64,000 nucleotides of DNA from Polyangiaceae bacterium (GTDB lineage Bacteria > Myxococcota_A > Polyangia > Polyangiales > Polyangiaceae): positions 200,466 to 264,465 of the forward strand of contig JADJRH010000002.1 in assembly GCA_016712345.1 (NCBI GenBank), read 5' to 3'. Below are positions 2,926 to 27,057 of this stretch, piece by piece. Made by a program: the position numbers and the translations under genes. The notes beneath the pieces are model-generated. The model worked only from the letters and a program-made list of their open reading frames with translations. It did no database searches and was not told the origin of the DNA. Numbering within the stretch: the first letter of the stretch is position 1; the number at the start of each line of letters is the position of its first letter.

Positions 2926-3082
2926 GGCGCGTTCGGGGCGAAGAATACACGATTCACGGCGTCTCAAGGCGCAGAATCGTCGGGGGGCGTTGCGGGGGGC
3001 GTTGCCCCTCAAGAACGAGTGCCCGTTTGAGGCCCTCTCTCGTGTGAGAGTTCAGCCGGACCAGACCTTCAAAGATCAAGCC

Positions 3083-3517
3083 ACCTAGAGCACCAATCGG
3101 TTTGATTCCGTAACCAAATGGATAGTTCACATGTGTACACAAACAGGCAGAAGCAAGGCAAGAAGGCCAGGCCCGAAGCTGCTACCCGGTGACAGACACC
3201 CAGTTCGGATCGCGTGGAGGGGGGCCCGCGGCCGACTTGCTCGGAGTTGGGGGTTAGGGAGCGAGTGACCTGTGCGCGTTCGAGCGGTGCGGTTTGGGCC
3301 CCATGCGCCACTGTCGGCGGGGAAGGGGCCCCGTCCGCGGGCGCTTGGGAAAAACCGTCACCGCGAGATGTGCACAGGTCAGGAGCGACCCGTGCGGGGG
3401 AGGAGGCGCGAGCCTCCTCCACTGGGAAAAGACTAGAGCACCTGCCGATATTTCTCGGCTTTCTCAAGTCACTAATCTTCTGATTTTACTCACGATTCAA
3501 ACCAATTGGTGTTCTAG
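3083..3517. repeat. GC-rich non-coding segment bounded by about 27-bp imperfect inverted repeats
   Basis: 3083-3109 cctagagcaccaatcggtttgattccg versus the reverse complement of 3492-3517, cctagaacaccaattggtttgaatcg (about 23/27 match). A third partial copy, ctagagcacc, sits at 3432-3441. ORFs inside look like GC shadow frames. Confidence 0.4.
3398..3419 (-). terminator. strong stem-loop (9-bp GC stem, 4-nt loop), possible terminator of the orphan toxin/immunity transcript
   Basis: ggaggaggc-gcga-gcctcctcc, about 95 nt downstream of the immunity gene stop on the minus strand. No U-tract follows. Confidence 0.3.
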
Positions 3518-4071
3518 GGAATGGTCACTTTTTCGAACAAAGCACCTGTGCATCCGGCCTGTTCCAAGCGGTTCTTCAACTCCATAGAAACGATCATCTC
3601 AACGTAAGATCCCCACAATCTGAAACAGTGAACTGGTGGTGGAATCTGACTTGTATCTAAGACTAATTTCGTGATTGACCGGTACTGACCTGCCAGATCA
3701 GCGCGGTGATCACTGGCTGTCCATTTTGTAAATCGAGATTGATTCTCATCCACGCATCGAAGAACCCGAAGGACGTTAACTGCCATCATCTGCGCGGACT
3801 CACCTAGTACAATCGGTAGGATCTGAACGTCGTCCCCGGCGACCTCTCTAAAAATGGTCGCCAACTTAGGTGTTACAATCGGGACTCCGAAACTTGTCAG
3901 CGAAAAATCTAACCTGGCTCCCCGGTGATGTATCGGAGCTGACAATGGGGTTGTCAAATGCAAAGCAATTCCGCCCTTCAGATCAGGTTCGGCACCGTCG
4001 GAAAGAGTAACTTCGCCGATGTGCCATCGGTTCGAACTTCGCATGTCGTCGAAAACTTGAAAGTACATCAT
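3514..4071 (-). CDS. polymorphic-toxin immunity protein (Imm11/DUF1629-like)
   Basis: 185-aa ORF. Its ATG overlaps the toxin stop in an ATGA (4068-4071). The C-terminus ..FRLWGSYVEMIVSMELKNRLEQAGCTGALFEKV resembles the DUF1629/Imm11 tail. Its position directly 3' of an RHS toxin tip supports the call. Confidence 0.6.
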   Translation of the reverse strand: MMYFQVFDDMRSSNRWHIGEVTLSDGAEPDLKGGIALHLTTPLSAPIHHRGARLDFSLTSFGVPIVTPKLATIFREVAGDDVQILPIVLGESAQMMAVNVLRVLRCVDENQSRFTKWTASDHRADLAGQYRSITKLVLDTSQIPPPVHCFRLWGSYVEMIVSMELKNRLEQAGCTGALFEKVTIP

Positions 4072-5552
4072 GGTTGAGTCAGTAATTTGTTAAGATCTGA
4101 ACCAGGCGTACTTAGCTCTTTGCTCATTGCGTCGAGTTCAGATCGAAAGGCTTCCGCGTACCTATCGCCCGAAAGCCCTCGGGTTGCGCGTTCCAAACGC
4201 TGGGACACTTCGCGATGATATGCTTCCGAATGGGGCCCGCGGTGTCCTGGGACTCGCACTTTATTAATTGCGTCATCGAGAGTCATTCCGGCCTTTTCGG
4301 CCATTCTTTCGAACCGCTGCGTCCACGGACCACCGTTGGATGACGAAACACGGTTCTTGTTTGTCATGATATGGTGCACCTGTCCATCCCCACCTTTTGG
4401 CGCCGACATCCATGCGTTAATCCCCGCCAAAATGTTTCCCGCACCACCCACAACGCCGACGGTAGAAACGGCAATTGCCGGCACTCCAACTGCCGCACCT
4501 ACCCCGGTCACGGTCGCCGCCCCGCCGAAGATCTCCCCACCAAGCGACGTGGCCGTGGTGTACAAACCGCCGCCAATCATCCCAAGCGCCTTGCCGCGCT
4601 CAAAGTACACCGAACGGCGCTTTACCAAGCCTTCCGCAAGGGCCGCTTCTTCGGCCACCCCTGCACCGGGTACAATGCCCAATAGTGCCCCACTAAACCC
4701 GCCCGCGATTGTCTGAAGAACGGGATGATTATACCACGGCTCGTCTTCCGCTTCCTCGTCAGGTTCGGCGGTTATGTCTTCCGATCCCGTGCTGTCCACG
4801 TCGGTTTTCGGCTCACCTACCCCGTGTTCCGCTTCTTTCTTAGGTTTGTCTTCCGTCGGCGGCCCGGCCTTTGATCCCGGTACAGAAATCTCCACATACC
4901 CACTCGGGTCCACGGGTAGGGAAGGCTCGCGCTTAGGTTCGCCGTCAAATCCGCTTGGGTCAGTATAGGTCAGCGGATTATTGAAAACGTAACTGTAGGG
5001 GTTCCACGCCTGACTGAATGTCCAATTCTGAATGATGGGATCAGTGCTCAGAAACCTACCCAACTTGGGATCAAACATTCGCCCTTTCATGTTGACTAAA
5101 CCGATCTCCCCATCGTCTTCATGCCCCGTAAATCCAAGCGAAATCGAATCTGGAAAGCTCGCAGGTATAGGGGCGCCCCACTCGGGATTTCTCCGCCGGC
5201 CGAAGGCGTCGTAACTGCGCCGCTCGGTGACCTTCCCATCGGCGTCTGTGAGTACGTCCACCGATCCCAAATGATCCGCGTGCACATACGTTGTGCCTGG
5301 TTGATTACCTCCAAGCGTGACAATCGCGATCACGCGTTCAGGCGAGTGCACATAAAATCGCTCGGTGAGCGCGTTCGCGGCGTCTTTGACACGTTCGTAC
5401 AGGTCGGCGAAATAAAGCGTTTCGTGCGTTGCGGTTAGATCGAGAGTGAACCGCGCTTGCCTGCGCAAAACGGGCTTGCCGTGCTTTGGCTCGCCTTCCT
5501 CGGGATGGTCAGAAACCAACGCGGCACCTAACAAGGTTGCCAAGCCGCCCAA
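4068..5552 (-). CDS. orphan RHS C-terminal cassette: RHS core end + Gly-rich linker + HNH/EndoVII (AHH-type) nuclease toxin
   Basis: Contains ..THETLYFADLYER..HADHLGSVDVLTDADGKVTERRSYDAFGRRR..GFTGHEDDGEIGLVNMKGRMFDPKLGRFLSTDP..NNPLTYTDPSGF, the RHS core terminus. The tip reads ..GQVHHIMTNKN..PGHRGPHSEAYHREV, an HH..N..H..H pattern. The first in-frame start is TTG and there is no ATG. Confidence 0.8.
   Translation of the reverse strand: MGGLATLLGAALVSDHPEEGEPKHGKPVLRRQARFTLDLTATHETLYFADLYERVKDAANALTERFYVHSPERVIAIVTLGGNQPGTTYVHADHLGSVDVLTDADGKVTERRSYDAFGRRRNPEWGAPIPASFPDSISLGFTGHEDDGEIGLVNMKGRMFDPKLGRFLSTDPIIQNWTFSQAWNPYSYVFNNPLTYTDPSGFDGEPKREPSLPVDPSGYVEISVPGSKAGPPTEDKPKKEAEHGVGEPKTDVDSTGSEDITAEPDEEAEDEPWYNHPVLQTIAGGFSGALLGIVPGAGVAEEAALAEGLVKRRSVYFERGKALGMIGGGLYTTATSLGGEIFGGAATVTGVGAAVGVPAIAVSTVGVVGGAGNILAGINAWMSAPKGGDGQVHHIMTNKNRVSSSNGGPWTQRFERMAEKAGMTLDDAINKVRVPGHRGPHSEAYHREVSQRLERATRGLSGDRYAEAFRSELDAMSKELSTPGSDLNKLLTQP
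4926..5436 (-). repeat. RHS-core homology block, inverted copy of 24446-24955
   Basis: Direct comparison: aaccgcaacgcacgaaacgctttatttcgccgacctgta.. is shared, and about 94 percent identity was seen over the first 96 nt aligned by eye. Identity collapses after ..gatttgacggcgaacc.aagcg.gagcc. Confidence 0.85.
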
Positions 5553-5735
5553 AAATGCGCGTGGGTGATTTTGGTGGGTAGACGACCCGCGAAGATTGTG
5601 CCCTTTTCATGATGGGCGCCTCGTTCTGGGGGCGTTCACGCTTTGTGGCGAGCCAGTCAACCGTTTCGCGTTGCGCGAAGGCCACCCAAGGGCAATGATG
5701 GGTAGGTTGCGGGGGATCTACCCATGGTTGAGGGG

Positions 5736-7622
5736 CTACTTCGGCTCCGGCGGATCGTAGATTTTCTTTACGTCGGCACCGCCCACGAACGCGTACGAGC
5801 CGGCGCTTCCATACCCATAAGCGACAATTCCAAAGGGCTTGTCACCTGACAGGTTGTGGGCGCCTTCTTGGAGCGGGCAGCGACGGGTTTCATACTCCAC
5901 ACCGGCGAGGTTGCCGGCCGGTTGGGTAGAACATCCACCCGGGGAGGTGCCGTCAATGGAGACGTTGGTGCCCACTTCGGCAACGATGACGACCCAATTT
6001 TGGTTCCACGAGCCGGGGGTTAGAATAACATATTCTGTGCGGTATTGGTCAACCGGTGGGAAGACGGTGAGGGAAGGATCGCCGATGTACGCACCGTCGC
6101 AGTATTGATTGCTGACAAGGATCTGACCAATCATGACGGGGGTGTCGGAGGTGACAACCACGTCGCCCTGGGTCCAGGTGGTTTTGACTTCACCCGGTTG
6201 GAGGGTGAATTGGTTGAATGGGGCGGGGAGGGTAGTGGTGACGTTGGTGACTTCGGCGGCGCCGACAAACCGGAGGATGTCAGGTTCTTTAAAGCCGCCC
6301 GTGGAACGCACGGGGCTGCGGGGAATGACGTAGTTTTTACCGACCGATTCCACCGGGAAGAGTTGGTCTTCAAGGTGGTCAAGGCAGCAGGTGTTGTCGG
6401 TTGTCCAACCGGGTGGGGTGGGAATGTCCACAACGCCGCCGGGAGCACCTGTGCTTTCTACCCCGGAGAATACGGCCACCGGCGCGTTGGCCGTGACAAG
6501 GGTACCTGACAAGTCGGCAATGGTTTTTGGATCGTCTTGGAATGTGCCGTCGTCCGTTTCAAGGTTGAGCACGTCAAACGGGCCAATGGTAAGACTGATG
6601 TCGCCGCCGGCTGGTGTGGCTGCAACGGGGGGATTTCCCTTGATTCGCCAGCTGGGTTTTACTTTGACAACGGTGTTGGGGGTGGTGCCGACAATGGTGA
6701 CATACGAGCGATCGAGAATGTTGAACCCGCCGAATTTGACGGGGTGGCCGGCGGGCCAGCCGATTACGCGGTAATAGGTTCCAAGTGCGTTGGTGGGTAG
6801 AAGAAGCGACGCATCGTTGGAATACGCGTTTTCAAAAACGTTGAATTGGTAGACAACGATGGGCGCGCTTGACTTAATGCGGAATGCGCGCGAGGAGAGG
6901 CAGGTTCCAGGGGAGGCGTAGTCGTTGGGTTGGACGCCGCAGTCAAGTTCACGCGTGGGTAGAACAAGGGCGTACAAGGCCCCGGGGTTGACCTCGGCGT
7001 CGGCGACTTTTGAAAGCTGGAGGGGTTGCCCGGGAGCGGCTTCGTTGATCTCAATGGAGACAACGGCTTTGGTTTGGCCGGCGTTGGAAAGCGCGACACC
7101 CCACGGTGCACTGGCCGGATCGTTGAAGCCGTCTTGTTGGTCAAGGTCAACCGCCCAAAATTCACACCCAACGTTGGAAGGTTGACCTTCTGCCACAACA
7201 CATGCGCTGATGCAGGCGCCGTTGGAACACGTTAAGCCGAGGGCCGGATCGCAGGTTTCTACCGGGGTGGTGCCGATTGTACCTTGGTCGGTGCACTGGT
7301 AGACATCATTGCCGAGGCAGGTTTTTCCACCGGGGTAACAGTCCACACAACCGAGCTTGGGAGCGCACGCTTTGGGGCATGTTTCAGGTGTGCCCGGCGT
7401 GCCGTCGCTGTTGCATGGGATGTAGGAGCCGGCGTTGCAAATGTCGCAAACATCGGAGTTGCCTCCGATGCCGCCGTTGCCGCCGTTGTTGGATGAGGTG
7501 GACGCCCCCGCGCCGCCGCCGCCTGTGGTGTTATTTGGAGCGGCGGAACAACCGAATTGAGATGGCAAAAGCGCCAAGAATAAAAGGGAAGAAATGGGTA
7601 GTAGGGTACGGCTCGAACGCAT
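5736..7622 (-). CDS. secreted Cys-rich lipoprotein, IgGFc-binding-protein-N-terminal-like domain (tentative)
   Basis: ORF 5736..7772. The likely start is the ATG at 7622, giving MRSSRTLLPISSLLFLALLPSQFGCSAAP (lipobox). A Gly/Cys-rich EGF-like stretch follows, then ..GCEFWAVDLDQQDG.. and ..VVYQFNVFENAYSNDASLLLPTNALGTYYRVIGW... Confidence 0.55.
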   Translation of the reverse strand: MRSSRTLLPISSLLFLALLPSQFGCSAAPNNTTGGGGAGASTSSNNGGNGGIGGNSDVCDICNAGSYIPCNSDGTPGTPETCPKACAPKLGCVDCYPGGKTCLGNDVYQCTDQGTIGTTPVETCDPALGLTCSNGACISACVVAEGQPSNVGCEFWAVDLDQQDGFNDPASAPWGVALSNAGQTKAVVSIEINEAAPGQPLQLSKVADAEVNPGALYALVLPTRELDCGVQPNDYASPGTCLSSRAFRIKSSAPIVVYQFNVFENAYSNDASLLLPTNALGTYYRVIGWPAGHPVKFGGFNILDRSYVTIVGTTPNTVVKVKPSWRIKGNPPVAATPAGGDISLTIGPFDVLNLETDDGTFQDDPKTIADLSGTLVTANAPVAVFSGVESTGAPGGVVDIPTPPGWTTDNTCCLDHLEDQLFPVESVGKNYVIPRSPVRSTGGFKEPDILRFVGAAEVTNVTTTLPAPFNQFTLQPGEVKTTWTQGDVVVTSDTPVMIGQILVSNQYCDGAYIGDPSLTVFPPVDQYRTEYVILTPGSWNQNWVVIVAEVGTNVSIDGTSPGGCSTQPAGNLAGVEYETRRCPLQEGAHNLSGDKPFGIVAYGYGSAGSYAFVGGADVKKIYDPPEPK

Positions 7623-7740
7623 GAGGGTAGAGTGCCCGAGTGCGCGTGAGAAGTCAGTACGAAACGACCGACGCAGTGCGGTAACTGAGACGTCTCGCAA
7701 CGACCTGAAACGCCTCGCGACGACCTGACATGTTGTACTA

Positions 7741-7892
7741 AACACGGAGGCACGGACTACACGGAGGTTCACGGAGATTTTCTATATTTCGGGCTGCAAT
7801 GGATGTCAGAAACGTTGTTTGGAACCGCGTTCTGCGAGCCGATTGCAGCCCAACAAACAAAGAAACTCCGTGTTCCTCCGTGATTCCGTGTT
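7741..7892. repeat. palindromic intergenic element with CACGGAG iteron arrays (copy A)
   Basis: Left arm aaCACGGAGgCACGGActaCACGGAGgttCACGGAGattttctatatttcGGGCTGCAATgg. The right arm is its imperfect complement: ccgATTGCAGCCCaacaaacaaagaaaCTCCGTGttcCTCCGTGattCCGTGttg. A related copy lies at 55146-55321. Confidence 0.75.
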
Positions 7893-7961
7893 GAAATGGA
7901 CGGTTCAGTTGGAGAAACGCACCAGGTTCTTGCCGGGTGGCGTCAGTTACCCAGAAGGCCC

Positions 7962-8669
7962 TTAATTGGAAGTGGCGGCGGTTTCAGAAGGAGGAGGCGA
8001 GGATGGGGAGGTGGAAGGTGTATTCAAAGCGTCATTGGAGATTTCCCAAACGAGTTGAGTGTTGCCCTGCGCTCCGGCGAAGCGAATACCAAACCACTTG
8101 GCTTTTGTGGAAATGGTGGGGCGACCCTCGGCTGTGACGCGGGGAAAACGAATGCGAAACGCCTGTCGAAACACGTTATTGTAGGGGAAATAAGTGCGTT
8201 CAATGGCGTTTGGTTTTTTAATGAGTTGAATTTCTTCAGGCGCTGTTTCGTTGCCTGTGTCGTCGATGAGCCGAACGATCCATGCGCTGTCGGGGCGGGT
8301 CAGATCGTTGTAGCGGCGCTCGCCGCCGTAGATGGCCACGAAAAACTGGTGGCGGCGTTTGGTTTCATCGAGCGCTTTTTCAAGGAGTTTTTTGCGCTCA
8401 TCAATGGTGAGGCGGTAGTCCTGAACGTAGCGGACTGTGTACGCCCAGCGAAAATCCCACGATTCAAACGTGGCTGTCGCTGTGAGGAAGTTGTCGAGTT
8501 CGCTCAGCGAAAACAGGCGTTCGGTGCGGGTCCAATGGCGAAGCACCGATTCATAATCGGTGGCGACATATTCACGCGGGCCTTCTGCGAGCGATACCAA
8601 CTGCGGTGCGCAACCGCACGCAGCAAATGCTGACACGGCGACGGTAAGCGCGGTGGAGAGGCGAAACAC
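7962..8669 (-). CDS. hypothetical lipoprotein
   Basis: GTG start. The N-terminus FRLSTALTVAVSAFAACGC has a lipobox. The C-terminal tail is Pro/Ser-rich. Confidence 0.55.
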   Translation of the reverse strand: MFRLSTALTVAVSAFAACGCAPQLVSLAEGPREYVATDYESVLRHWTRTERLFSLSELDNFLTATATFESWDFRWAYTVRYVQDYRLTIDERKKLLEKALDETKRRHQFFVAIYGGERRYNDLTRPDSAWIVRLIDDTGNETAPEEIQLIKKPNAIERTYFPYNNVFRQAFRIRFPRVTAEGRPTISTKAKWFGIRFAGAQGNTQLVWEISNDALNTPSTSPSSPPPSETAATSN

Positions 8670-8681
8670 GGCCCGACCTTA

Positions 8682-9431
8682 TCACGTGTCGTGGCCGGCT
8701 CGTTCAGCGAGTCGCACGTCGGTTTCAAGCCCGGTGAGGGCGGCTGTGTAACCGTCGCGTGCCGCTGTGCGCATTTCCATGAGAAGAGCGATTCGATGCA
8801 GGCGCGTTTCGGCGAGATCCGCCCGCGCCATCGCGTCGCGAACCACTTGAACTTGGCCTTGCCTGAGTTTGGTGGCGAGCGATCCAACGGCGATTGCCGC
8901 GATGAGGAGCACAACGAGCCCGATTCCGAGGAGGAGCGCAACGGCAAGTCCGCTGCCTTCACCTGCGAAAAGCGCTCGAAACGCGGCGATTGCGGCGAGC
9001 ACAACTCCGCCGATGAGGAGCAAAAGTGAACTGATGACACCGAGTCTTTCAGTCCACGCGGCGCGCGCGAGTTGGCGCATGGCGACGTTGCGCCAAAAGT
9101 CGGCTTCGCTGTCGAGGCGTTTGGCGAGCGATGCGAGAGCGTCGTCGGTGGACAGCTCCGGCAAGTCGGCTTGGTGAAGCAACTCAGCGGGGATGCGCGC
9201 TTCATCTCCGGCATCGGCGCTGAGCGCATCACCCACTTTTCCAAGGCCCGAACGAACGCGATTGCCAACGGCGGTCGCCACCGGCTTCACACCGGCGGCG
9301 GCCTTTTCTCCAAGTTCGGCGGCCGTGGAGCGCGCGCCTTGGAGCGCTTTTTTGGCATTGTGTACACTTGATTTTTCGTCGTCCGAGTCGGCGATTGGTG
9401 ACTTGCCCCAAGTGCTTTGTTTTTCGCTCAT
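8682..9431 (-). CDS. hypothetical membrane protein (two central TM helices)
   Basis: ATG at 9431, 3 nt after the dehydrogenase stop. Hydrophobic segments are GVISSLLLLIGGVVLAAIAAF and LAVALLLGIGLVVLLIAAIAV. Confidence 0.55.
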   Translation of the reverse strand: MSEKQSTWGKSPIADSDDEKSSVHNAKKALQGARSTAAELGEKAAAGVKPVATAVGNRVRSGLGKVGDALSADAGDEARIPAELLHQADLPELSTDDALASLAKRLDSEADFWRNVAMRQLARAAWTERLGVISSLLLLIGGVVLAAIAAFRALFAGEGSGLAVALLLGIGLVVLLIAAIAVGSLATKLRQGQVQVVRDAMARADLAETRLHRIALLMEMRTAARDGYTAALTGLETDVRLAERAGHDT

Positions 9432-9434
9432 GGA

Positions 9435-10514
9435 TTAACGCGACGAAGAGACGATTTTGGATCCTGGGGCACCTGCGCGGGCAAGCTTTTCTTCAACCAT
9501 GAGATCGGCCACGCGATACGTGGGAGTGAGTGTACTCATGCTTCGCTCGGCGATCTCGTGGATTGTGTCGTAGATCTTGAGGGTGCGGTCGCGCGAGATC
9601 GTGGCGTTGTACCCAACCACTTCTTGAGCAACGTTGATGAGGCCGCCCGCGTTGATGGCGTAATCGGGCGCGTACAAAATGCCTCGTTGATTGAGGTCGT
9701 CGCCGTGGCGAGGCTCGTGGAGCTGATTGTTGGCCGCGCCGGCCACGATTTTGGCTTTGATGCGCGGTACAGTTTCATCGTTGATGGCCGAGCCGAGCGC
9801 GCATGGGGCGAGCACGTCACATTCAATTTCAAAGATGTGGTCGAGCGGCACGATGTCGGCGCCAAACTCGCGCTGCGCGCGTTCGCTCTTGAGCGGATCC
9901 ACATCGGCCACGCTGAGCTTTGCGCCGCACGCCGCCAGCTCTTTGCAGAGGTGGTAACCCACGTGTCCAACGCCCTGAACCGCCACGTGCAGGCCTTCGA
10001 GTGAAGAGCGACCGAGTTTGAGTTGGGCGCACGCTTCAATTCCCCTTCGAACGCCGAGCGCTGTGAACGATGAGGGATCGCCCGAACCTCCATTTTTCAC
10101 ATCGACACCGGTCACGTGTTTTGTTTCGTGACGAATCAGCTCCATGTCTTCAAGGCCGGTGCCCGAGTCTTCGGCCGTGATGTACCGACCCCCAAGCGCA
10201 TCTACAAATCGCCCGAAAGCAAGGAAAAGAGCGGCCCTGTCAAACACCGGAGCGGCGGGTCGCAAGAGTACACTTTTGCCACCGCCGTGAGGTACACCTG
10301 CGAGCGCGGCCTTGTAAGTCATGCCGCGCGCGAGACGCAGCGCGTCAACCAATGCCTCCTCTTCTCGGGCGTATGCGAGGAAGCGACAACCTCCAAGCGA
10401 AGGGCCCAATCGAGTGTCGTGAATGGCAACAATGGCGCGCATTCCGCTCGCTGGATCTCGGCGAAAATGCACTTCGCCGTAATCGTAGGAGGCGAGGTGT
10501 GAAAAGACGTCCAT
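9435..10514 (-). CDS. Glu/Leu/Phe/Val dehydrogenase family (leucine/phenylalanine dehydrogenase-like)
   Basis: From the ATG at 10514: MDVFSHLASYDYGEVHFRRDPASGMRAIVAIHDTRLGPSLGGCRFL..GMTYKAALAGVPHGGGKSVLL and the Rossmann motif VAVQGVGHVGYHL. The track ORF extends upstream to 10667. Confidence 0.85.
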   Translation of the reverse strand: MDVFSHLASYDYGEVHFRRDPASGMRAIVAIHDTRLGPSLGGCRFLAYAREEEALVDALRLARGMTYKAALAGVPHGGGKSVLLRPAAPVFDRAALFLAFGRFVDALGGRYITAEDSGTGLEDMELIRHETKHVTGVDVKNGGSGDPSSFTALGVRRGIEACAQLKLGRSSLEGLHVAVQGVGHVGYHLCKELAACGAKLSVADVDPLKSERAQREFGADIVPLDHIFEIECDVLAPCALGSAINDETVPRIKAKIVAGAANNQLHEPRHGDDLNQRGILYAPDYAINAGGLINVAQEVVGYNATISRDRTLKIYDTIHEIAERSMSTLTPTYRVADLMVEEKLARAGAPGSKIVSSSR

Positions 10515-10728
10515 GGGTTTCCCTGTGCGTTGTGTGAGAGCGACTTGTTTGCGTGCCTCGTTACCACAGTGCGTCGTTTGGTGCGGTGGTTTGAGTGCGC
10601 AAAAAGTCTTTTTTTCAGGGCTCCGCGCGTCGGCGGAAGAGCAGCCGGTGATATAAGTGAACGTCATCGATCAACGCGTGGGCACTCCGCGCGGTGAGCA
10701 AAAAACTTAGAAGAAGGGTTCATCGGCG

Positions 10729-12582
10729 ATGCGGACCAAAATCATTCCGAGCGCACTGTTCCTGACCGCTCTCGCAGCGGTCGGATGCGGTGACGGCGGG
10801 GAGAGTTCCACGGGAGGAACCACCTCCACGACCCCGTCCAAACCACCCACCGTTGTCGATATTGTTGTCGACGCCAATCGCGATGGGAAACTCGATCCGG
10901 CCGATCCCGCCGATCAAGACAAAGAAAACGAATGGAGCGTCGACAGCGGCGCGTCGTTTTTGGCAAACCTCGATGACGACGACGCGGACAAGTTTCGCGA
11001 CGTAGACGACCAGATCATCAACGGGCCGGATGATGAACTCGACCTGGCGAAGATGCAGCTCGTCGCGTGGCCCGACGCTCCCGACGGTGCGCTTGGTGTA
11101 CTCCATATCGATCCGATGAGCGCCCAGAACATTCGCCTCTGGAAAAAGGGGCTCGACGGCGCTTGGTGGCTCGTCGGTGGCAACGTCGGTCCCTGCAACG
11201 AAGTGGATCCGGCGTGCACGGTGACACCCGACGTAACGTTTCCAATCGAAGAAGTGCGCGCGGGGCTCACGCTCGGGATCGAAGCGCGTTTCTTCCGTCG
11301 CTCACTTGCGCCTGAGGCGTGGACGGGCATTGTGCAGCTCGGCTATCAGGTAAACGACAAAGACGGTGCGCCGATCACCGACGACAACATTCCCGATGGG
11401 CTTGATCAGGCCAAAATTCGCGTTGCCCCGTGGATGTTGTTTGGCAACCTTTCTCCTTTTGATCGCGTTTGGTCCAACAACGTAATGCCGGCATTTGTGT
11501 CGGGTCTTTCAACGCTGTCGACGGAAGCGGGCGTTACCTACAAGAAGATCACCAACTGGCAGGATCACTGGACTCAAGACTATTTCCAAACGGGGTACAC
11601 AACGATCCCGGTTGAAAACGGCGCCGTTCAAGGCATGCGCATCGCCAACGCAAGGCCGTGGGGTCGCTGCGACTCGCCTTCGTGTTGGCCGATCAACTGG
11701 CTCAAAAAAGGGTATTTGTCGCCCGGAAACGGTGTGATCGAGATCTACAACAAGCCCAATACGGGTTCGACGTACGACTCGCATGGCAACCACGATCTGC
11801 TGCCTCCGTATGAAAACGGAGAATCAAAATATCCCTTTGGTCGCATCGCAATCGGCTCAGGTGTACTCAAAGAAACCAAAGATTTTTACGCTGCGCAGGA
11901 GGTTCAAGGCCCGCCGATCATCGTGAAAACGTCGTGGCTCTACGTGGGTCACATCGACGAAGTATTCAGTTATGTGCCCGCGAACACGCCGCGCGGGTGG
12001 AAGCTTTTGGTAGGTTCACCCAAGCTCGCAAAGTCCATGCTTGAGGCGGCTCAAGCGGCCGGACACGGCGCGGTGACCATGTTTAAAGGGCAAAAGTGGT
12101 ACACCGAAAATGGCAGTCTCATAGACGCCGAAGTTTCAATTGACGAGGTGCTCGCCAATCAAGATCTGCTTGCTGCGTCGCAAGAAGCGCAAGGCGAGAT
12201 CGACGACATGATTGCCCAACTAAAAGAAGAGGTGGGTCTGGCGGACGACGAGATCGTCGAAATGCCGTATCTGCTCCAAGACCTCTTTGGGCAGAAGGTC
12301 GCCTTTAACCCGGGCACGGCCAACATGCTTGTTGTGGCCGACCACTTGGGCATTCCCAAACCGTGGGGCCCCGTTATCGACGGTGCCGACATTTTCGAAA
12401 CCGATCTTGAAGAGCGCCTTGGAGCACCGGGCCAAAACCTCGGATCCGACGGCAACGGTCTTATCGTTCACTTCATCGACGACTGGGAGTGGTACCACGC
12501 GCTCGACGGTGAGGTGCATTGCGGCTCCAACGTGGATAGCGTGCCGCCCGCGGATCAAACTTGGTGGAAGGTGTTGAAATGA
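10729..12582 (+). CDS. eukaryote-type protein-arginine deiminase (PAD, PF03068-like) with lipoprotein signal
   Basis: MRTKIIPSALFLTALAAVGCGD carries a lipobox. Matches to PAD active-site blocks are WTQDYFQTGY, ..SWLYVGHIDEVFSYVPANTPRGWKLLVGSPK.., and the C-terminal ..DDWEWYHALDGEVHCGSN with the catalytic Cys. Confidence 0.88.
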   Translation: MRTKIIPSALFLTALAAVGCGDGGESSTGGTTSTTPSKPPTVVDIVVDANRDGKLDPADPADQDKENEWSVDSGASFLANLDDDDADKFRDVDDQIINGPDDELDLAKMQLVAWPDAPDGALGVLHIDPMSAQNIRLWKKGLDGAWWLVGGNVGPCNEVDPACTVTPDVTFPIEEVRAGLTLGIEARFFRRSLAPEAWTGIVQLGYQVNDKDGAPITDDNIPDGLDQAKIRVAPWMLFGNLSPFDRVWSNNVMPAFVSGLSTLSTEAGVTYKKITNWQDHWTQDYFQTGYTTIPVENGAVQGMRIANARPWGRCDSPSCWPINWLKKGYLSPGNGVIEIYNKPNTGSTYDSHGNHDLLPPYENGESKYPFGRIAIGSGVLKETKDFYAAQEVQGPPIIVKTSWLYVGHIDEVFSYVPANTPRGWKLLVGSPKLAKSMLEAAQAAGHGAVTMFKGQKWYTENGSLIDAEVSIDEVLANQDLLAASQEAQGEIDDMIAQLKEEVGLADDEIVEMPYLLQDLFGQKVAFNPGTANMLVVADHLGIPKPWGPVIDGADIFETDLEERLGAPGQNLGSDGNGLIVHFIDDWEWYHALDGEVHCGSNVDSVPPADQTWWKVLK

Positions 12583-13511
12583 GCCGCAACAAAACGTCAC
12601 TTTGGGGTCTTGTGTTGGGAGCCGCCGTGGTTGCCCTTTCGGGTAGCGCGCGCGCCGACGGCATTGCACTCAGTGCGGCTGAACTTCCTTCACAAGTAAA
12701 GCAATCGCTCGCCAAAGATGTGGCGGCGTACAAAGCCGCGCACGCGGCCGATTTTAAGCCTGTGCGCGACGTGCAGGGCATTAAGCCCGATGTGTACAAA
12801 GCCTATCGAAACCCGCAGCCCGTTGCGGTGCTCGAGCTGAAACGCCTCGGTGCGGGCGCGCTCTTGCCCATGCTTGACGTGCTTGCTCTCGACGCCCCCG
12901 CGCTGACGTTGAGCGACAAAGAAAAAACAGCGTACATCGTCGGCCTGCTTGAAGCTTCGAGCGCGCTTCGCGATGCCCGCAGTGGGCCTGTGTACACAGC
13001 GATCTTTGAGGCGAAAAACAAGCCGAATGATGTGCTGCGTGCCGCGGCGGAGGCTCTCGGGCGCGTGTGCGGCGATGCCGAACTTGGCACCCTCAAGAAA
13101 CACACCGCCGCAGGTGATGCGTTGCGTACACATGCTATTCGCGGTCTGTCGCAGTGCCGTCGCAAAGAAGGTGTGGAGCACCTCGCAACACTTCTCGGCG
13201 CCGCATCCGATGCCGCTTCGGCTGAGCCCATCGCCGACGCTCTCGGGCTCGCGTCGTCGAGCTGGGCGTGGAAAGCCATGGGAGCCAAAAGCGCGGCGGC
13301 AGCCAAAGACGTTCAGCAAATTGCCGCGAAGGCGCTCATCACTTCGTTCGTGAAGCACAAAGACGCGCGCCCGGCGGCTCGAAAAGCCCTCAAGTTGGTT
13401 GAGTCTCCCGATGCGGTCACGCTCATCGCGGCGGCTCGAACAAGCGCCGACGCAGTCACACAGAGCGCGCTTGACGAACTCGCCAAAGCCGTCACCCCCG
13501 CTACCAAGTAG
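12579..13511 (+). CDS. secreted alpha-helical (HEAT/ARM-like) repeat protein, translationally coupled to PAD
   Basis: The ATG at 12579 overlaps the PAD TGA in an ATGA. Signal peptide MSRNKTSLWGLVLGAAVVALSGSARA. The body is Ala/Leu-rich helical repeats. Confidence 0.55.
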   Translation: MSRNKTSLWGLVLGAAVVALSGSARADGIALSAAELPSQVKQSLAKDVAAYKAAHAADFKPVRDVQGIKPDVYKAYRNPQPVAVLELKRLGAGALLPMLDVLALDAPALTLSDKEKTAYIVGLLEASSALRDARSGPVYTAIFEAKNKPNDVLRAAAEALGRVCGDAELGTLKKHTAAGDALRTHAIRGLSQCRRKEGVEHLATLLGAASDAASAEPIADALGLASSSWAWKAMGAKSAAAAKDVQQIAAKALITSFVKHKDARPAARKALKLVESPDAVTLIAAARTSADAVTQSALDELAKAVTPATK

Positions 13512-13525
13512 ATAACGGCCAATAG

Positions 13526-13552
13526 GCACAGCGCGTATTCTTTGCGCTGTGC
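13526..13552 (+). terminator. hairpin downstream of 12579-13511 (possible terminator)
   Basis: gcacagcgc-gtattcttt-gcgctgtgc, a 9-bp stem 15 nt after the stop. No clear U-tract. Confidence 0.3.
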
Positions 13553-13828
13553 TCAGCCCCAATCCTGATCAGTTAAGACAAGAAAGCCTTCTCTCTGTGA
13601 GGTTTGGCGGCTCCTGCCGCCTGGTAGCTACCTGCCGACGGCCCCGCCGAATTCACGTTTTCGTCGCGGCTGCATTCGCAGGAAACACGTTATGGAGAAG
13701 GCTTTCGCGCCGCGCTTTTCGCTTTCTCGCTCGGCAGCGGGCAAGGGTGTCCGAAACGTCGCGACGACCCTGACTCCGGGCTTCGCTGAAACGTTTCGAC
13801 TGCTTAAGATCCGACCTATGAACCCGGA

Positions 13829-14830
13829 TTAGCGATCTTCGATCGTCATTGCGCTCTTGAGCGCGTCTTTGTTCGGCCGAACATCAAAGTTAAATCCAAT
13901 GTTCATTCTGCCCGCGTAATACGACTCCACGTCGCCGCGCAGCGGTGTTGTCACCGGGAACAAGAAACTCAGCGCCGGCTGAATGCGAGGCAGCATTAAT
14001 CGAATGCTCGGCGACACGGCAAATGCCGCTCGATTGTCGTCGTTGGCGAGTTCCTTTGTCACCTCGTAAACCTCCCACAACTCCACGCCGATACCGAGCC
14101 ACTCACTCAACCGGTAGCCCATGTAAAACGTGAGCCGCGCCGTGAAATTGGTAATTCGAGGATTGCTTCCCGACGGTGTACCCCCCGGGATTTCTTCGGG
14201 ACCGTTAAGGGAGATCGACCAATCAATGCCTTGTCGAAGCTGAAAAATAAGCCCTGAAACAACGTGCCGAATGTCGATCCACGGCCTAAACGTGAGCGTC
14301 AAACTGGAGAAACTCGCCAGATCCCACGGCTTCACCGTGCGCACTGTGCGCAGCACTTCGGTTTCAACAGGAGAAAGTGCGCGCGGCGTGGGGAGCACAA
14401 TGCCAAGCCCGCCGCCCGACGAAAGGCCTCGACTGGAGGACCACAAGCCTCGTCCGCTGATCTCAGGGTTTCCAAGCAAAAAAGCGGTGCCAACGCCGGG
14501 CAGAGCCGCCGCCGCAATATCGTTTGAAAGGCCTATAAACCACTGCCGCGGAACAATCGGATATTCGGCATCGGTGTGCATGAAGTACGCAAACGCATCA
14601 CCGGATCGGTCTTGATCTTTGGGCTGAATCACCGCGGCTGTCAGCTCAAAGTTAAACGTCAGATCGCGGTGAGCGAGCGCTGGCAACGTCGGCGGGGCAG
14701 GCGCATCCAACACACTTTTCAAGTCGTCCCCGGAGCCGTTGAGCGCCGACTGCGCAAGAACAGATTCTGCGCGGAGAACAACCAACAGAAACAAACCGGC
14801 CGAGAAAACCCGGCCCAACGTGGAAGTCAC
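13829..14830 (-). CDS. hypothetical secreted/outer-membrane-like protein
   Basis: The GTG start overlaps the rseP stop in a GTGA. Signal peptide ..FSAGLFLLVVLRAESVLAQS. Alternating beta-like segments. Confidence 0.5.
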   Translation of the reverse strand: MTSTLGRVFSAGLFLLVVLRAESVLAQSALNGSGDDLKSVLDAPAPPTLPALAHRDLTFNFELTAAVIQPKDQDRSGDAFAYFMHTDAEYPIVPRQWFIGLSNDIAAAALPGVGTAFLLGNPEISGRGLWSSSRGLSSGGGLGIVLPTPRALSPVETEVLRTVRTVKPWDLASFSSLTLTFRPWIDIRHVVSGLIFQLRQGIDWSISLNGPEEIPGGTPSGSNPRITNFTARLTFYMGYRLSEWLGIGVELWEVYEVTKELANDDNRAAFAVSPSIRLMLPRIQPALSFLFPVTTPLRGDVESYYAGRMNIGFNFDVRPNKDALKSAMTIEDR

Positions 14831-15951
14831 TTCTTTCCGAGAATGTCGTTGAACACGGTCACATAGCCCATCAACCCGAGCAGCATGATGAGCCCAACAC
14901 CGTGAATGACAGCTTCAATACGGGGGTTGGCGCGACGCCGCGTTGCGGCTTCGTACGTGAGAAAAATGAGCCGACCGCCGTCGAGAGCCGGAAATGGAAT
15001 GAGATTAAACGCTCCCAAATAGGCCGACAAAGCAGCCAAAAACTCGATGAAATCGGCCCAACCACCTTCAGCCGCGGCGGCCGTTTGTTCAACCATCGCT
15101 TTGGGACCGCCAAGCTCTTTTACCGAGCCTTCGTGTACCCATTTTTTCAGATTGATAAACAGCTCGGCAACCACCATTGCCGGTTGCTCAAACGCCTGGA
15201 TCGCAGCCTCTTTCATGGTCATCGGGATGCGCTCTCGAAAGAGCCCAACACCGATTCGACCTTTGCCTTCTTCGTTTGCGGGGGTGACCGTGATGGTGAC
15301 GCGCTCCCCTTTTCGCATCACGTCCACGGAGATTTTTTCTGCGGGGTGTTTCGAGATGTTTTCGGCCATTTTTGACCACGTTGAAACCTCAACACCCGCA
15401 ACGTTCACCACTTGATCGCCGTCTTTGAACCCCGCGAGCATGGCAGGTTTTCCAGGCAGAACACCGATGATCGTTGACTCGCGCTCCACATGGCGCCCGA
15501 CTGCTGCGTACACACCAAAAAACACCAGCGCAGCAAACACGTAGTTGGCAAGCGGCCCCGCAAAGATCGCCGCGATCCGGCCTGTCACGCTCGCGTTTGC
15601 GTAACTGCCTTTGTCCTTTGGATCCACCTCTTCGAGTGGATTCATCCCGGCGATTTGCACGTACGCGAGGAATGGAATGGCCGCGACCTGAAACACTGTC
15701 GGCCCATGTTTTTCGGGCACGTGTTTCCACAGCCGCAGTCTCACTTTGCCCGCCGCCGTTGTGAACCAGTAATGGCCGTCTTCGGGCACAATCTTGAAGA
15801 TCGTTGGGCCGAACCCGATCGAGAACTTGATCACGCGCATGCCGTAGGCGCGGGCGGCGAAGAAGTGGCCGCCTTCGTGCACGATCATGAGCAAGGCGAG
15901 GCCGAGAGCACCGATGAGGTACTTGAACCAAGGGGGCATCGAGCGGAGCAT
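14827..15951 (-). CDS. rseP: RIP (site-2) zinc metalloprotease RseP family
   Basis: MLRSMPPWFKYLIGALGLALLMIVHEGGHFFAARAYGMRV contains HExxH. A PDZ-like middle follows, then ..FNLIPFPALDGGRLIF.. (the LDG motif). Confidence 0.85.
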   Translation of the reverse strand: MLRSMPPWFKYLIGALGLALLMIVHEGGHFFAARAYGMRVIKFSIGFGPTIFKIVPEDGHYWFTTAAGKVRLRLWKHVPEKHGPTVFQVAAIPFLAYVQIAGMNPLEEVDPKDKGSYANASVTGRIAAIFAGPLANYVFAALVFFGVYAAVGRHVERESTIIGVLPGKPAMLAGFKDGDQVVNVAGVEVSTWSKMAENISKHPAEKISVDVMRKGERVTITVTPANEEGKGRIGVGLFRERIPMTMKEAAIQAFEQPAMVVAELFINLKKWVHEGSVKELGGPKAMVEQTAAAAEGGWADFIEFLAALSAYLGAFNLIPFPALDGGRLIFLTYEAATRRRANPRIEAVIHGVGLIMLLGLMGYVTVFNDILGKK

Positions 15952-15983
15952 AGCATCGCCGCCCCGGCGTGGTTGTGTTTGCT

Positions 15984-16637
15984 CTACAGCATGAAACTTA
16001 CGCCGACGGTCACGAACGGAATGCCGAGGCGCATGGTGAGCGTGATCTTGTCGCGGAAGTGGAAGCGCCCACCCACCTCGAACATCGGCTCAACGAAGAT
16101 GGCGTCGTAGCCGCGATCCCCTACGAAAAACCCGTTACTGTGCGGCACAAATCCAACTTCGGCGAACACGCTCCACTTCTTGTGCAAAAAGAAGTTCCAC
16201 TGTGCGCCGATGGGAAACCAAAACGAATATTCGTCGGGATAACAATATCCGCAGTTGGTAATATCGAGCCCAAACGTGATGCCGATGGTGTTGTTGAGCT
16301 TGGGAATCACCGGGTCGACAATTTCAATCGTGGCGCGAAAACCAACGCCCGCGTTGAAGTAGTAGCGATTGAGATCGCGCCCGTATCGAAACGTATTTCC
16401 CCACGGTGACAGTGTCCCGTGCGGTTCCAACTCAACCCGGTAGTCGGGGTGGTCACTTGGATTGCGAATGATCATTTGCGCGGCGGCTTCACTCGCCGAG
16501 AACAACGCAACACCGGCGGCGGCCGACCCAAGCAGTACAGCGACTCGACGTTGGTAGGTTCGCATGAGCAATGTTCCTATCGCGACATCGCGGCGCAAAG
16601 CAACCGCGATGGTTGCCCTGATAGTGCCGGCGCGCAT
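15984..16637 (-). CDS. hypothetical outer-membrane beta-barrel-like protein
   Basis: Signal peptide ..LLGSAAAGVALFSASEAAAQ. Aromatic-rich alternating strands with a C-terminal ..GVSFML. Confidence 0.5.
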   Translation of the reverse strand: MRAGTIRATIAVALRRDVAIGTLLMRTYQRRVAVLLGSAAAGVALFSASEAAAQMIIRNPSDHPDYRVELEPHGTLSPWGNTFRYGRDLNRYYFNAGVGFRATIEIVDPVIPKLNNTIGITFGLDITNCGYCYPDEYSFWFPIGAQWNFFLHKKWSVFAEVGFVPHSNGFFVGDRGYDAIFVEPMFEVGGRFHFRDKITLTMRLGIPFVTVGVSFML

Positions 16638-16793
16638 GATTGAAAGGTCGCGAATTTGGGAGGCTTAGTTATTTGCGCACGAAAAGCGCGCGACATGCAC
16701 AGTGCTTGAACCGGGCGGCGCTACGTCTGCCCACGCAACCGCAATGTGTACACCATCTGCGAGGCGACAACGGCGGGACTTGGCTCTGTGATC

Positions 16794-17993
16794 TTATTCA
16801 ACGCGGGCACACCCATCTTGCTCAAATGCCAAAATCCGCGCCCGACCAACTATCCCGCCCTGAACTTGCCGAAAACGTTGCTCATACACCCGTTCATACA
16901 GCTTGGCTTGGCCGTCGCCTTTGAGCGGGATTGCCTTGGGAATGATCCCCGCGATTCGAAACGGGCATACCCACGTTTTTGGATTTTCTGTATTGGAAAA
17001 AACAATGCGGGCCAAAAACCCTATTTCAGTGGCCAAGTGCTCTCGATGTGTACGCATTAGAAAATTACCAATGCTATAAAAAATGGGCTTGCCTTTGTAC
17101 ACTTCAATCCCCTGCGAAAGATGGGGGTGGTGCCCAATCACCGCATCGGCCCCGGCGTCAATCGCCGCGTGGTGTAGGTCAATCGCGCGCTGAAGAGGCA
17201 CGCTCACATATTCTTCCCCTCCATGGTAACTTACCACCACGGGGGCTCCGTTGCCGGCTGTTTTAGCTGCCTTTACTGCCGAGCTGACTGCCTCTTTACC
17301 GGCCTCCGCCACGTAATCTTTGGCTGCGTGAACCTTGAGTGCGCCTTGGTTCCATATATCTGTAAACGCCAAAATGCCCAGCTTAAACCCGTTTACTTCT
17401 ACCCATGCGGGCGAATAAGCCTGCTCCCGATTTCTACCCGCTCCGGCATATTTCACCCCCGCCCGCTCCAGATTTTCAAGCGTTTCTAAAAAGGCCCGCT
17501 GCCCATAATCCCACATGTGATTGTTCGCGAGCGACACCACACCCACCTTGCCAAGTTGCAGCGCCCTCGCTCCACCGGGCGGACCTGTAAACACCAGCTT
17601 TTGGGTAGGTGATTGAGTTTCCCCTTTTTGGTCAGACAATTGACTTTCTAAATTGACAAATCTCACGTCCGCCGTGGCCAGGAGTTCTGCCACCGACTCA
17701 AACGGGTTAAAGTCGGGATTTTTTAAAATCTCCTGCCCAATCGATCTACCCATGCAAACGTCGCCGCCGAAAATAACAGAAGCCGAGGAGGCGGCCGGCG
17801 GTGCAAGGTTGCTTTCAGCGGTTGAGGAAGCCGTGGGTACAACCGCAGCGCTCGTTTCTCCACGTTGGCCATGGGTAGACAAGGCGCTCGACGACAACGT
17901 CTCAGACGTTTCATCCGTGGCAGATGAGCCCGAAGAACACCCCAGAACAAGGGCCACACCGACGGTCCAAATTCTCCAACCGGTGAAACGCAT
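16794..17993 (-). CDS. CapA family (PGA_cap metallophosphatase-like) lipoprotein
   Basis: Lipobox VALVLGCSSG. CapA-type blocks are VIFGGDVCMGR, VNLESQLS, LANNHMWDYG, VVSYHGGEEY and GADAVIGHHPH. Confidence 0.75.
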   Translation of the reverse strand: MRFTGWRIWTVGVALVLGCSSGSSATDETSETLSSSALSTHGQRGETSAAVVPTASSTAESNLAPPAASSASVIFGGDVCMGRSIGQEILKNPDFNPFESVAELLATADVRFVNLESQLSDQKGETQSPTQKLVFTGPPGGARALQLGKVGVVSLANNHMWDYGQRAFLETLENLERAGVKYAGAGRNREQAYSPAWVEVNGFKLGILAFTDIWNQGALKVHAAKDYVAEAGKEAVSSAVKAAKTAGNGAPVVVSYHGGEEYVSVPLQRAIDLHHAAIDAGADAVIGHHPHLSQGIEVYKGKPIFYSIGNFLMRTHREHLATEIGFLARIVFSNTENPKTWVCPFRIAGIIPKAIPLKGDGQAKLYERVYEQRFRQVQGGIVGRARILAFEQDGCARVE

Positions 17994-18047
17994 ACCCCAA
18001 CTCTACCACGAAATCCGTTCTGCGCCCTACGGCGTTTAACCCCGCCG

Positions 18048-19010
18048 TTACTTTGGCTCTTCGGTGGGGGCGCACGTGGAAACGCCGGCGCCAACGATGT
18101 CAAACCCCACGTTGGTATTGATGGGGGTGGTGATTTGGGAGGTGGGCTCGTATTTGTAAATGCCTGTGCCGCTCATGATGTAAAACGAACCTCCCCAAAA
18201 GGCGAAGGCCCACGACAGGCCGCTTGGAATTTGAGTGAGGTCAGAATAGGTAATGACCTTTGCGTCGGCCTTGTTGATCTCCGCGAGCCGAATGGGGACA
18301 TCTTGAAAGTACCCAAACAGCCGCGCGTCGCCCGTGCCTGTCAGTTCTGCCGCTTTGCCCGCCAAAACGTCGTAGTCGGCAATAGGAGTAAGCGTCAGGG
18401 TGGTTTGATCGATGGTTGCGAGGCCGGACGCTCCGGGTTGGTTATACGCACCCGAAACGTACAACGTTTCCATGTCAGACCCCGCCGCGTCGGAAACAAA
18501 TCCCATTCCAAACGTGCAAAATCCGGACTGGCAGGGTAGAAACCCGGTGGGTGTGCAGTTGAGCGTTTTGGTATCTACGTGGTAGATTACGCCGTTTGCA
18601 AAGAGTACCCACGCTCTTCCTTTTCTATCCACCGACATAGAAAACGTGGTGTTGAATTCTTCTCCCGGGCAGTTGAGTGTGCCCAGCACCGTGAGATCCT
18701 GAGTTTGCGGAGCAAAGCGAGCAAACTGCTTATCCTGACCCAATATGTACACACTGCCTTTGGTGTCGTTGTCGCAGTCGCCCGGGCCCGCCGCGCCGGT
18801 TCCAGAACTTACCGACAGGTCAATTCCACCGTCGCCGCCTTTTCCGGTGCTCATACTTCCCCCCAACCCGCCCGTGGGGAGACTTCCCGCCGAACCGCCG
18901 CTCCCGCCGACAGTTGGATCACCGGTCGCCGCCGTGCGCCCCGCGCTGCACGAAAGCGCACCAAAAACAGCCACAACAGTGCATACCGCCCGCAGATTAA
19001 GGTGAAGCAT
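18048..19010 (-). CDS. hypothetical lipoprotein with Gly-rich N-terminal linker
   Basis: ATG at 19010. The signal AVFGALSCSAG is followed by GGSGGSAGSLPTGGLGGS. Confidence 0.55.
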   Translation of the reverse strand: MLHLNLRAVCTVVAVFGALSCSAGRTAATGDPTVGGSGGSAGSLPTGGLGGSMSTGKGGDGGIDLSVSSGTGAAGPGDCDNDTKGSVYILGQDKQFARFAPQTQDLTVLGTLNCPGEEFNTTFSMSVDRKGRAWVLFANGVIYHVDTKTLNCTPTGFLPCQSGFCTFGMGFVSDAAGSDMETLYVSGAYNQPGASGLATIDQTTLTLTPIADYDVLAGKAAELTGTGDARLFGYFQDVPIRLAEINKADAKVITYSDLTQIPSGLSWAFAFWGGSFYIMSGTGIYKYEPTSQITTPINTNVGFDIVGAGVSTCAPTEEPK

Positions 19011-19173
19011 GGGGGGATGTTAATCCCAAAAACAAGCGATTGGAAATGGAGTATTTCTGCTGACTACACTCCTGGGTAACTGCGTAACAAATAAAGCACA
19101 CACCCCGCATGCGAGGATCTGCACTGAACATCCGACACGGTTAACAACATCTCCAAAACGAAAGGATGCGCCA

Positions 19174-25774: not shown

Positions 25775-25784
25775 AGGAGGCCCC

Positions 25785-26243
25785 GTGAAATCGGATGCTG
25801 TCAGCATGGCCCTTTCAGATCTTGTGGTCGCCGCTGGGTTCGTGAGGAAGCGAGACACATGGTATCGCGCGACCGAGGATCTCATTCAAGTGCTGAATGT
25901 TCAGAAGTCCCGGTATGGTCAACAATACTATTTGAATCTTGGGATATGGCTAAAGCCCTTGGGAGAGGTGCAGTTTCCGAAAGAGAATGTATGCCATGTG
26001 CGCATTAGGGCCCGGCAACTCGACGAGGCGACCCGCGCCGAGTTTGAAAAATGTCTGGACTTGGACAGTGGTATCACCCCAGAAGAACGCGAAAACCAGA
26101 TCCGCCGATTGGTTGACGACGTTGTCCTGCCGTTTTTCGCAAGATGCGAGTCCATTGCGCAAATCCGACAAGTGTACAACTCGGGTGTGCTGAAACGAGC
26201 CGCCGTTTTGAGTACCGCACAAGAGTTTTTGACGGGTCAATGA
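25785..26243 (+). CDS. cognate immunity protein candidate (DUF4304-like)
   Basis: GTG start 10 nt after the RHS stop, preceded by AAGGAGG (25775-25781). The pattern ..GFVRKRDTWYRATEDLIQVLNVQKSRYGQQYYLNLGIW.. resembles DUF4304. Confidence 0.6.
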   Translation: MKSDAVSMALSDLVVAAGFVRKRDTWYRATEDLIQVLNVQKSRYGQQYYLNLGIWLKPLGEVQFPKENVCHVRIRARQLDEATRAEFEKCLDLDSGITPEERENQIRRLVDDVVLPFFARCESIAQIRQVYNSGVLKRAAVLSTAQEFLTGQ

Positions 26244-26982: not shown

Positions 26983-27057
26983 TTGCGCAATTGGTGATCA
27001 CTTGCTGCGCGGGCCTCAATTCCAACGGGTCTACAGCTTCGGCACGCCGCGTGCCAT

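Follow-up and report, generated by a model that had tools for sequence, protein, structure and literature searches.

The 64,000-nt stretch analysed here (the window; positions 200,466 to 264,465 of contig JADJRH010000002.1, from a Polyangiaceae bacterium) carries two rhs elements on opposite strands. One is a main polymorphic toxin gene that ends in a Tox-REase-9 tip, and the other, separated from it by 19,008 nt and lying 5′ of the main gene, is an orphan module that ends in an AHH nuclease tip. Both contain the 3′ end of the RHS-associated core, which forms an inverted repeat, and each is followed by a candidate immunity gene (Table 1). An earlier reading of the letters alone (the sequence-only reading) had proposed that recombination between the repeat arms switches the expressed toxin by inverting the DNA between them.

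Table 1. Positions of the rhs elements, the repeat arms and the associated genes in the window
Feature	Position	Strand	Remarks
Full-length polymorphic toxin gene (main rhs gene)	19174-25774	+	Signal/lipoprotein-like N-terminus, SpvB, FG-GAP, RHS repeats, core, linker, Gly-zipper, Tox-REase-9 tip
T6 run with +1 frameshift breaking the main gene	21955-21960	+	Located by comparison with P0153 and P0154
Main-gene repeat arm	24445-24957	+	Last 171 RHS-core codons; TIGR03696 at 24668-24931; ends ...NNPLTYTDPSGFDGEPKRE
Post-core linker (type M) and glycine-zipper pre-toxin region (window-specific type)	24958-25528	+	No Pfam model matches
Tox-REase-9 toxin domain	25529-25771	+	PF15650, E = 6e-26; homologous tip at Sorangium locus L006
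DUF4304 gene, presumed immunity gene for the REase-9 tip	25785-26243	+	Starts 10 nt past the main-gene stop
Orphan rhs C-terminal tip (rhs-CT) open reading frame, 494 codons from TTG	4068-5552	-	39-codon unrelated stub, core arm, type-O linker and Gly-zipper (4401-4922), AHH nuclease (4116-4400)
Orphan repeat arm	4924-5436	-	Same 171 core codons; TIGR03696 at 4950-5213
Imm11 immunity gene (PF07791)	3514-4071	-	ATG overlaps the orphan stop (ATGA)
Segment invertible by crossover between the arms	5437-24444		No recombinase; includes the main gene's promoter and shell part

As assembled, the main gene is not an uninterrupted reading frame. It consists of two overlapping open reading frames (ORFs) in different frames, the first of which (19174-22014) encodes the signal- or lipoprotein-like N-terminus, the SpvB domain and the FG-GAP repeats. 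The second (21896-25774) encodes the RHS/YD repeats (PF05593, E = 6e-35; TIGR01643, E = 8e-19), the RHS-associated core (TIGR03696 at ORF residues 925-1012, 71.6 bits where 32.5 is the cut-off) and the Tox-REase-9 tip. Dropping one T from the T6 run restores a single ORF of 2,199 residues. Correspondingly, the two closest orthologues, P0153 and P0154, which are 89-90% identical to the main-gene product, read through this site without interruption (...RDGRVFVAQGFLGFGA...). A frameshift position at about 21937, derived from Sorangium alignments, was overturned by the same two proteins, which show that frame 1 is correct up to the T6 run. Either a homopolymer was miscalled here or the gene has a real mutation of an inactivating or slippage kind. 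The single main rhs gene of the sequence-only reading is therefore retained as an Rhs toxin with an REase tip, but is split by the +1 frameshift into two ORFs.

The shell of the main gene is 47-52% identical to Rhs proteins of 2,140-2,325 residues from Sorangium and Polyangium, and the best JGI protein matches to it reach 50-54% identity. The presence of SpvB, FG-GAP and TcdB_toxin_midN in the main gene recalls the BC component of Tc (ABC) toxins; the resemblance is to a fused BC unit only, and the 64-kb window contains no TcA-sized or TcA-like gene for a Tc complex. On sequence grounds, the DUF4304 gene is presumed to be the immunity gene of the REase-9 tip, a toxin-immunity reading that is supported by the presence of the same pair at Sorangium locus L006.

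The orphan lacks the shell and the N-terminal domains, and the sequence upstream of its core arm is unrelated to the main gene. Its core matches TIGR03696 with 70.3 bits and its tip, which differs from the main-gene tip, matches the AHH domain (PF14412, E = 3e-17) and has its own immunity gene of the Imm11 family. The sequence-only reading had described a main rhs gene and an orphan rhs-CT-immunity pair with a common 3′ core, and had called the two toxin domains AHH and REase; the family matches in both arms, in both tips and in both neighbouring genes agree with it. Orphans typically lie downstream of the main gene in the same orientation, a feature that is typical rather than strictly defining, and the window orphan departs from it in being inverted and on the 5′ side.

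No ATG or GTG lies in frame within the orphan ORF, and no promoter-like site was found upstream of it, where promoter and terminator scans stayed at background level. An out-of-frame ATG at 5610 on the minus strand opens MKRAQSSRVVYPPKSPTRI, one base off the orphan frame. One base fewer in the 5-nt run at 5551-5555 would link MKRAQSSRVVYPPKSPTRI to LGGLATLLGAALVS... and yield a 513-residue ORF with a signal-peptide-like start. This run is the second instance of 'one extra T' beside an rhs element.

The corrected ORF would allow the orphan to be an independent gene, composed of a signal peptide, an RHS-core fragment, a Gly-zipper and an AHH domain, whose product acts as a secreted toxin or forms a toxin-antitoxin-like pair with Imm11. 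The +1 error in the T run of the main gene makes homopolymer miscalls in the assembly conceivable, many core-plus-toxin proteins of 400-800 residues are annotated in Polyangiaceae, and expression of a Salmonella orphan from an internal promoter is outlined in PMC7043789. An independent gene is nonetheless considered unlikely. The ATG is out of frame as assembled, and the in-frame start is a TTG without a promoter-like site. The signal-peptide reading is post hoc, and the N-terminus it produces is common to no homologue. Furthermore, the short annotated homologues begin inside RHS sequence, as orphan fragments do, and the long intact ORFs in the rest of the window, with an ORF coverage of 93%, make frequent indel errors unlikely.

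The inverted repeat that joins the two elements comprises two arms of 513 nt each. As the 64-kb window contains no other repeat, direct or inverted, that reaches 60 nt, the pair stands far above chance, and no copies of the core were found in the window beyond the two arms. Exact pairwise alignment of the two blocks, a check that had been named beforehand, pairs the arms without any gap and with 55 mismatches (89.3% DNA identity), 42 of which fall at third codon positions. The encoded peptides differ at nine of 170 residues, corresponding to 95% identity. The repeat exists where the sequence-only reading had placed it, but is not near-identical, as the ~94% identity quoted there is true of the first ~100 nt only. 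An assembly artefact is ruled out as the origin of the repeat because the arms are distinguished by 55 differences and are embedded in unique flanks.

Similarity ends abruptly at the 5′ edge of the repeat, where the 60-nt flanks are 18% identical. At the 3′ edge, DNA similarity stops directly past the residues FDGEPKREP, and the next 60 nt are 37% identical. The two proteins, however, remain 37-40% identical over a further ~175 residues, which span a linker and a glycine-zipper region, before reaching toxin domains of ~100 residues that are unrelated and ~20% identical to each other. Abrupt limits and unrelated tips, as claimed from the letters, thus hold for the DNA at both edges and for the last ~100 residues, but not for the protein segment in between.

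Synonymous divergence between the arms (dS) is 0.54 and non-synonymous divergence (dN) 0.026, giving a dN/dS ratio of 0.05. Recent duplication is ruled out by this dS as the source of arm similarity, which is explained instead by constraint on the core. The arms are identical over at most 41 consecutive nt, where random placement of mismatches would give 37.8 ± 9.0 nt (P = 0.33). With mismatches evenly spread and a run length as expected by chance, no conversion tract is visible and nothing points to recent exchange.

These values also bear on whether the locus is a decaying relic, in which the frameshifted main gene and the orphan are both being lost and the repeat has no role beyond retaining the immunity genes. 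The frameshift in the main gene, the orphan's missing start codon and the orphan substitution R41L, the only one in its core that is absent from all 113 homologues (0/113), would each fit such decay. It is made highly improbable by the dN/dS of 0.05 and by the state of the coding sequence: all 2,199 codons of the main gene (bar the one extra T) and all 494 codons of the orphan are open, the toxin domains cover almost the whole of their Pfam models, and the immunity genes, likewise intact, are tightly linked to the toxins.

The pre-toxin region between core and toxin has no Pfam model (E ≤ 10) and no NCBIfam model, and is conserved in many Polyangiaceae Rhs tips. It consists of a proline-rich and charged linker with a D-V-x-T-T-G-S motif, followed by a hydrophobic glycine-zipper domain, both of which occur as swappable types. 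This region was compared across the window orphan (4401-4922, minus strand), the main gene (24958-25528, plus strand), the proteins P0001 and P0152-P0154 of the closest relative and the Sorangium locus L001. The core is of one type (90-97% identity within type), the linker of two types (84-93% within and ~40% between types) and the Gly-zipper of three types (91-96% within and 35-37% or 70-77% between types), while the toxins belong to at least five families. Segment-wise identities show that core, linker, Gly-zipper and toxin are found in differing combinations. For example, the shell of P0154 bears the linker type (85%) and Gly-zipper type (94%) of the window orphan, joined at the same EP(K/Q)RE junction at which the window repeat stops. 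From these comparisons, tips have clearly been swapped at the core/linker, linker/Gly-zipper and Gly-zipper/toxin junctions over evolutionary time. Shuffling at such junctions is a known mode of Rhs diversification, and does not demonstrate that the window pair inverts.

The closest available relative of the window is the metagenome-assembled genome (MAG) IPK82, also from Polyangiaceae, which was compared by its proteins. Two of these, P0153 and P0154, come from shell genes, and P0001, P0152, P0121 and P0122 come from four orphan-like genes. To judge by accession numbers and locus tags, hundreds of genes separate these shell and orphan genes, or they are on other contigs. Proteins of this MAG include MBK8256450, MBK8257906, MBK8254929 and MBK8254536 (locus tags IPK82_22435, IPK82_25440, IPK82_27755 and IPK82_35225). 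Orphan dispersal thus seems to be a trait of this Polyangiaceae lineage, in which case chance alone would invert about half of the orphans. P0154 (IPK82_22435) is a shell paralogue with an internal deletion of ~370 residues, which joins LGFGA to QRFEYDR, and an HNH-like tip. P0152 is an orphan copy of the P0153 tip type (Gly-zipper 91% and toxin 73% identical) that lies about 2,000 genes away.

A genome scan with the core peptide returned, among the matches listed, Sorangium, Polyangium and more distant loci at no more than 69% identity. Homologues in Sorangium and Polyangium each occupy one ORF, of 2,140-2,325 residues, with direct orphan arrays behind it. The arrays at loci L001, L004, L005 and L008 resemble the window in belonging to the same family (shells 47-52% identical), in having tips built of core, linker and Gly-zipper, and in orphans that are followed by immunity genes. 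Their orphans are in tandem and co-oriented with the main gene, 1-5 kb downstream of it, and the homology blocks (457-2,477 nt, 91-95% identity) often run through the linker and Gly-zipper. In contrast, the window has no downstream array but a single orphan that is inverted, distant and, at the DNA level, homologous through the core only. No inverted orphan lies within ±10 kb of the Sorangium and Polyangium loci. In Sorangium sp. So ce1014, the array at L001 has a second orphan (13565-16415) that keeps ~500 shell residues and is frameshifted in the Gly-zipper region; frameshifted rhs fragments thus recur in this Rhs family. A scan of metagenomes with the AHH tip found no relative. The listed protein matches reach at most 1,461 residues, though Sorangium homologues of 2,100-2,300 residues exist, and the missing full-length proteins with this AHH tip therefore carry no meaning.

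Because the two core copies are inverted, a crossover between them would produce a 19-kb inversion and not a deletion. The inversion was built in silico with crossovers at arm offsets 0, 100, 256, 400 and 513. All five gave two open, in-frame chimeras, namely the shell with the AHH tip followed by Imm11, and the stub with the REase-9 tip followed by DUF4304. The proposal that one crossover would invert ~19 kb and swap the tips in frame, reversibly and without loss of a gene, is borne out by these constructs.

It is a further step to a working switch, in which recombination between the core copies flips the 19 kb often and the population holds both REase-9 and AHH isoforms. Besides the in-frame, reversible geometry, such a switch is favoured by the intact state of both tips and both immunity genes, by purifying selection on the orphan core and by tips swapped at the same junction in relatives; a repeat of 522 bp at 95% identity suffices for recombination in Salmonella (PMC3967940). 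No equipment of a switch was found in the window, however. Pfam scans of 40 of the larger window ORFs, including all 11 large ORFs of the interval, found no recombinase, invertase or transposase, with five interval ORFs giving no Pfam match at all. Similarly, no inverted 12-mers common to 3000-6200 and 23500-27200 occur outside the 513-nt arms, so that short crossover sites are missing from the regions scanned. The interval encodes an IgGFc-binding-domain protein, a Glu/Leu dehydrogenase, a PAD-type deiminase, an M50 protease, a PGA_cap protein and others, all ordinary chromosomal genes. Other genes of the window include mutL, miaA, clpB, aspS and a sigma-70 gene; with mutL present, mismatch repair would be expected on general grounds to suppress exchange between arms this far diverged. 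The divergence of the arms amounts to 11%, and their evenly spread mismatches show no conversion tract. The shell gene is frameshifted in the assembly, relatives have direct arrays or dispersed orphans, and no inversion between a main rhs gene and an orphan was found described in the literature. A switch of this kind is thought quite unlikely, and the label 'shufflon-like' given to it by the sequence-only reading is not upheld. The same low standing is given to a recombinase-free, RecA-driven switch that alternates REase-9 and AHH on one shell and in which inverted, dispersed orphans are a selected architecture, as the sole arrangement that reuses distant tips without deletion. Integration as an island or at a tRNA gene was also considered and is unsupported, as the window yielded no tRNAs, no Rfam matches and no mobile-element genes.

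The explanation preferred here, to which a probability of roughly 0.7 is given, is that the orphan is a dispersed, silent AHH/Imm11 cassette whose conserved core is an occasional substrate for homologous recombination, and not a component of a built switch. It starts from established features, which are the anatomy of the two elements, the in-frame geometry, the age of the arms and the shuffling of modules among relatives. The repeat represents the 3′ end of the RHS core, a conserved part of which a full-length SpvB-FG-GAP-RHS gene of the Sec/lipoprotein type has one copy and the orphan module has another, at its head. The 513-bp similarity is attributed to protein-level constraint on the core, including its DPxG cleavage region. 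Judged by its sequence, the orphan is most likely a silent store of the AHH toxin, although both its silence and its role as a reservoir are inferred, and the Imm11 gene may double as a stand-alone immunity gene. It is proposed that general (RecA-type) homologous recombination could link the orphan tip with the shell through this repeat and no other substrate. Such exchange would be rare and would occur on evolutionary time scales, at a rate presumed to be low. The inverted orientation would be a by-product of orphan dispersal in this lineage.

Three observations weigh against a silent, rarely used cassette. Both cassettes are intact and the orphan core is almost undecayed, which regular use would fit equally. 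Identical runs of 39-41 nt, at 89% overall identity, exceed the minimal homology usually cited and would still suffice for RecA-type crossover. Finally, the inverted orientation alone lets a distant orphan be used without deleting the genes between, and selection for this orientation is possible.

The nearest known counterpart is the main/orphan rhs pair of Salmonella Typhimurium LT2, which has 522 bp in common at 95% identity and for which recombinants were selected during passage (Koskiniemi et al. 2014, PMC3967940). In both cases, an orphan tip and its immunity gene are preceded by a common 3′ core of ~0.5 kb (522 bp at 95% in LT2 and 513 bp at 89% in the window). Recombination in the common block has been shown to graft the orphan tip onto the shell in LT2, whereas it is only proposed for the window pair. 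The LT2 orphan lies directly downstream in the same orientation, and recombination deletes the main tip, or keeps it after duplication; in the window, the orphan is 19 kb away and inverted, and the product would be an inversion. Furthermore, LT2 Rhs is linked to PAAR and type VI secretion (T6SS), whereas the window shell is of the SpvB/FG-GAP type with a signal sequence. Myxobacterial Rhs proteins with signal sequences are known to mediate T6SS-independent kin discrimination (PMC10433427).

Orphan arrays that arise by C-terminal displacement were described by Jackson et al. (2009), as referred to in PMC3072379 and PMC8125069. Cultures of Citrobacter rodentium have shown two rhs elements recombining, with alternative configurations side by side in one culture (Petty et al. 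2011, PMC3072379). The window resembles this case in that intrachromosomal recombination between separated rhs copies would move sequence between loci. The C. rodentium exchange, however, involves almost identical full rhs elements and a double crossover (translocation), and is neither a main/orphan exchange nor an inversion, nor one between copies that are 11% diverged.

The R64 shufflon (Rci), the G segment of phage Mu (Gin) and the hsdS inversion systems rely on a dedicated recombinase, on short crossover sites and on a small invertible segment that serves the switch. The window pair is like them in that inversion would reversibly exchange an expressed 3′ end for a silent alternative facing the opposite way. 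None of their three traits was found in the window scans.

Several features of the window lie outside the rhs elements. The 617-residue protein encoded at 10729-12582 (plus strand) matches the PAD protein-arginine deiminase family over the full model (PF03068, E = 5e-77), a family that is, to our knowledge, unusual in a bacterium. Three adjacent genes at 28240-33244 (plus strand) encode a MoxR-type AAA ATPase, a DUF2201 metallopeptidase/VWA protein and an 847-residue protein with a major-vault-protein shoulder domain (PF11978, E = 5.5e-30). Positions 1-2200 contain no listed ORF above ~120 codons (the listing omits ORFs that cross the window start), no tRNA and no Rfam family.

Bacteria are believed to draw on orphan toxin cassettes when they change weapons and kin identity. 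They are regarded in the literature as reservoirs or immunity stores (PMC8125069), and a Salmonella orphan can, as outlined in PMC7043789, act as a toxin-antitoxin module. In the cases that are known, the orphans are in tandem and their use costs the current tip, which is deleted, whereas an orphan that is distant and inverted would permit an exchange that is reversible and loses nothing. The literature searched yielded no description of an inverted orphan or of Rhs switching by inversion. Exchange by inversion, if true, would extend the view of polymorphic-toxin diversification and tie the choice of toxin to chromosome inversions. As it stands, the locus offers a clean example of a main/orphan pair from the Myxococcota (Polyangiaceae), a map of three swappable junctions and a prediction that can be tested by polymerase chain reaction.

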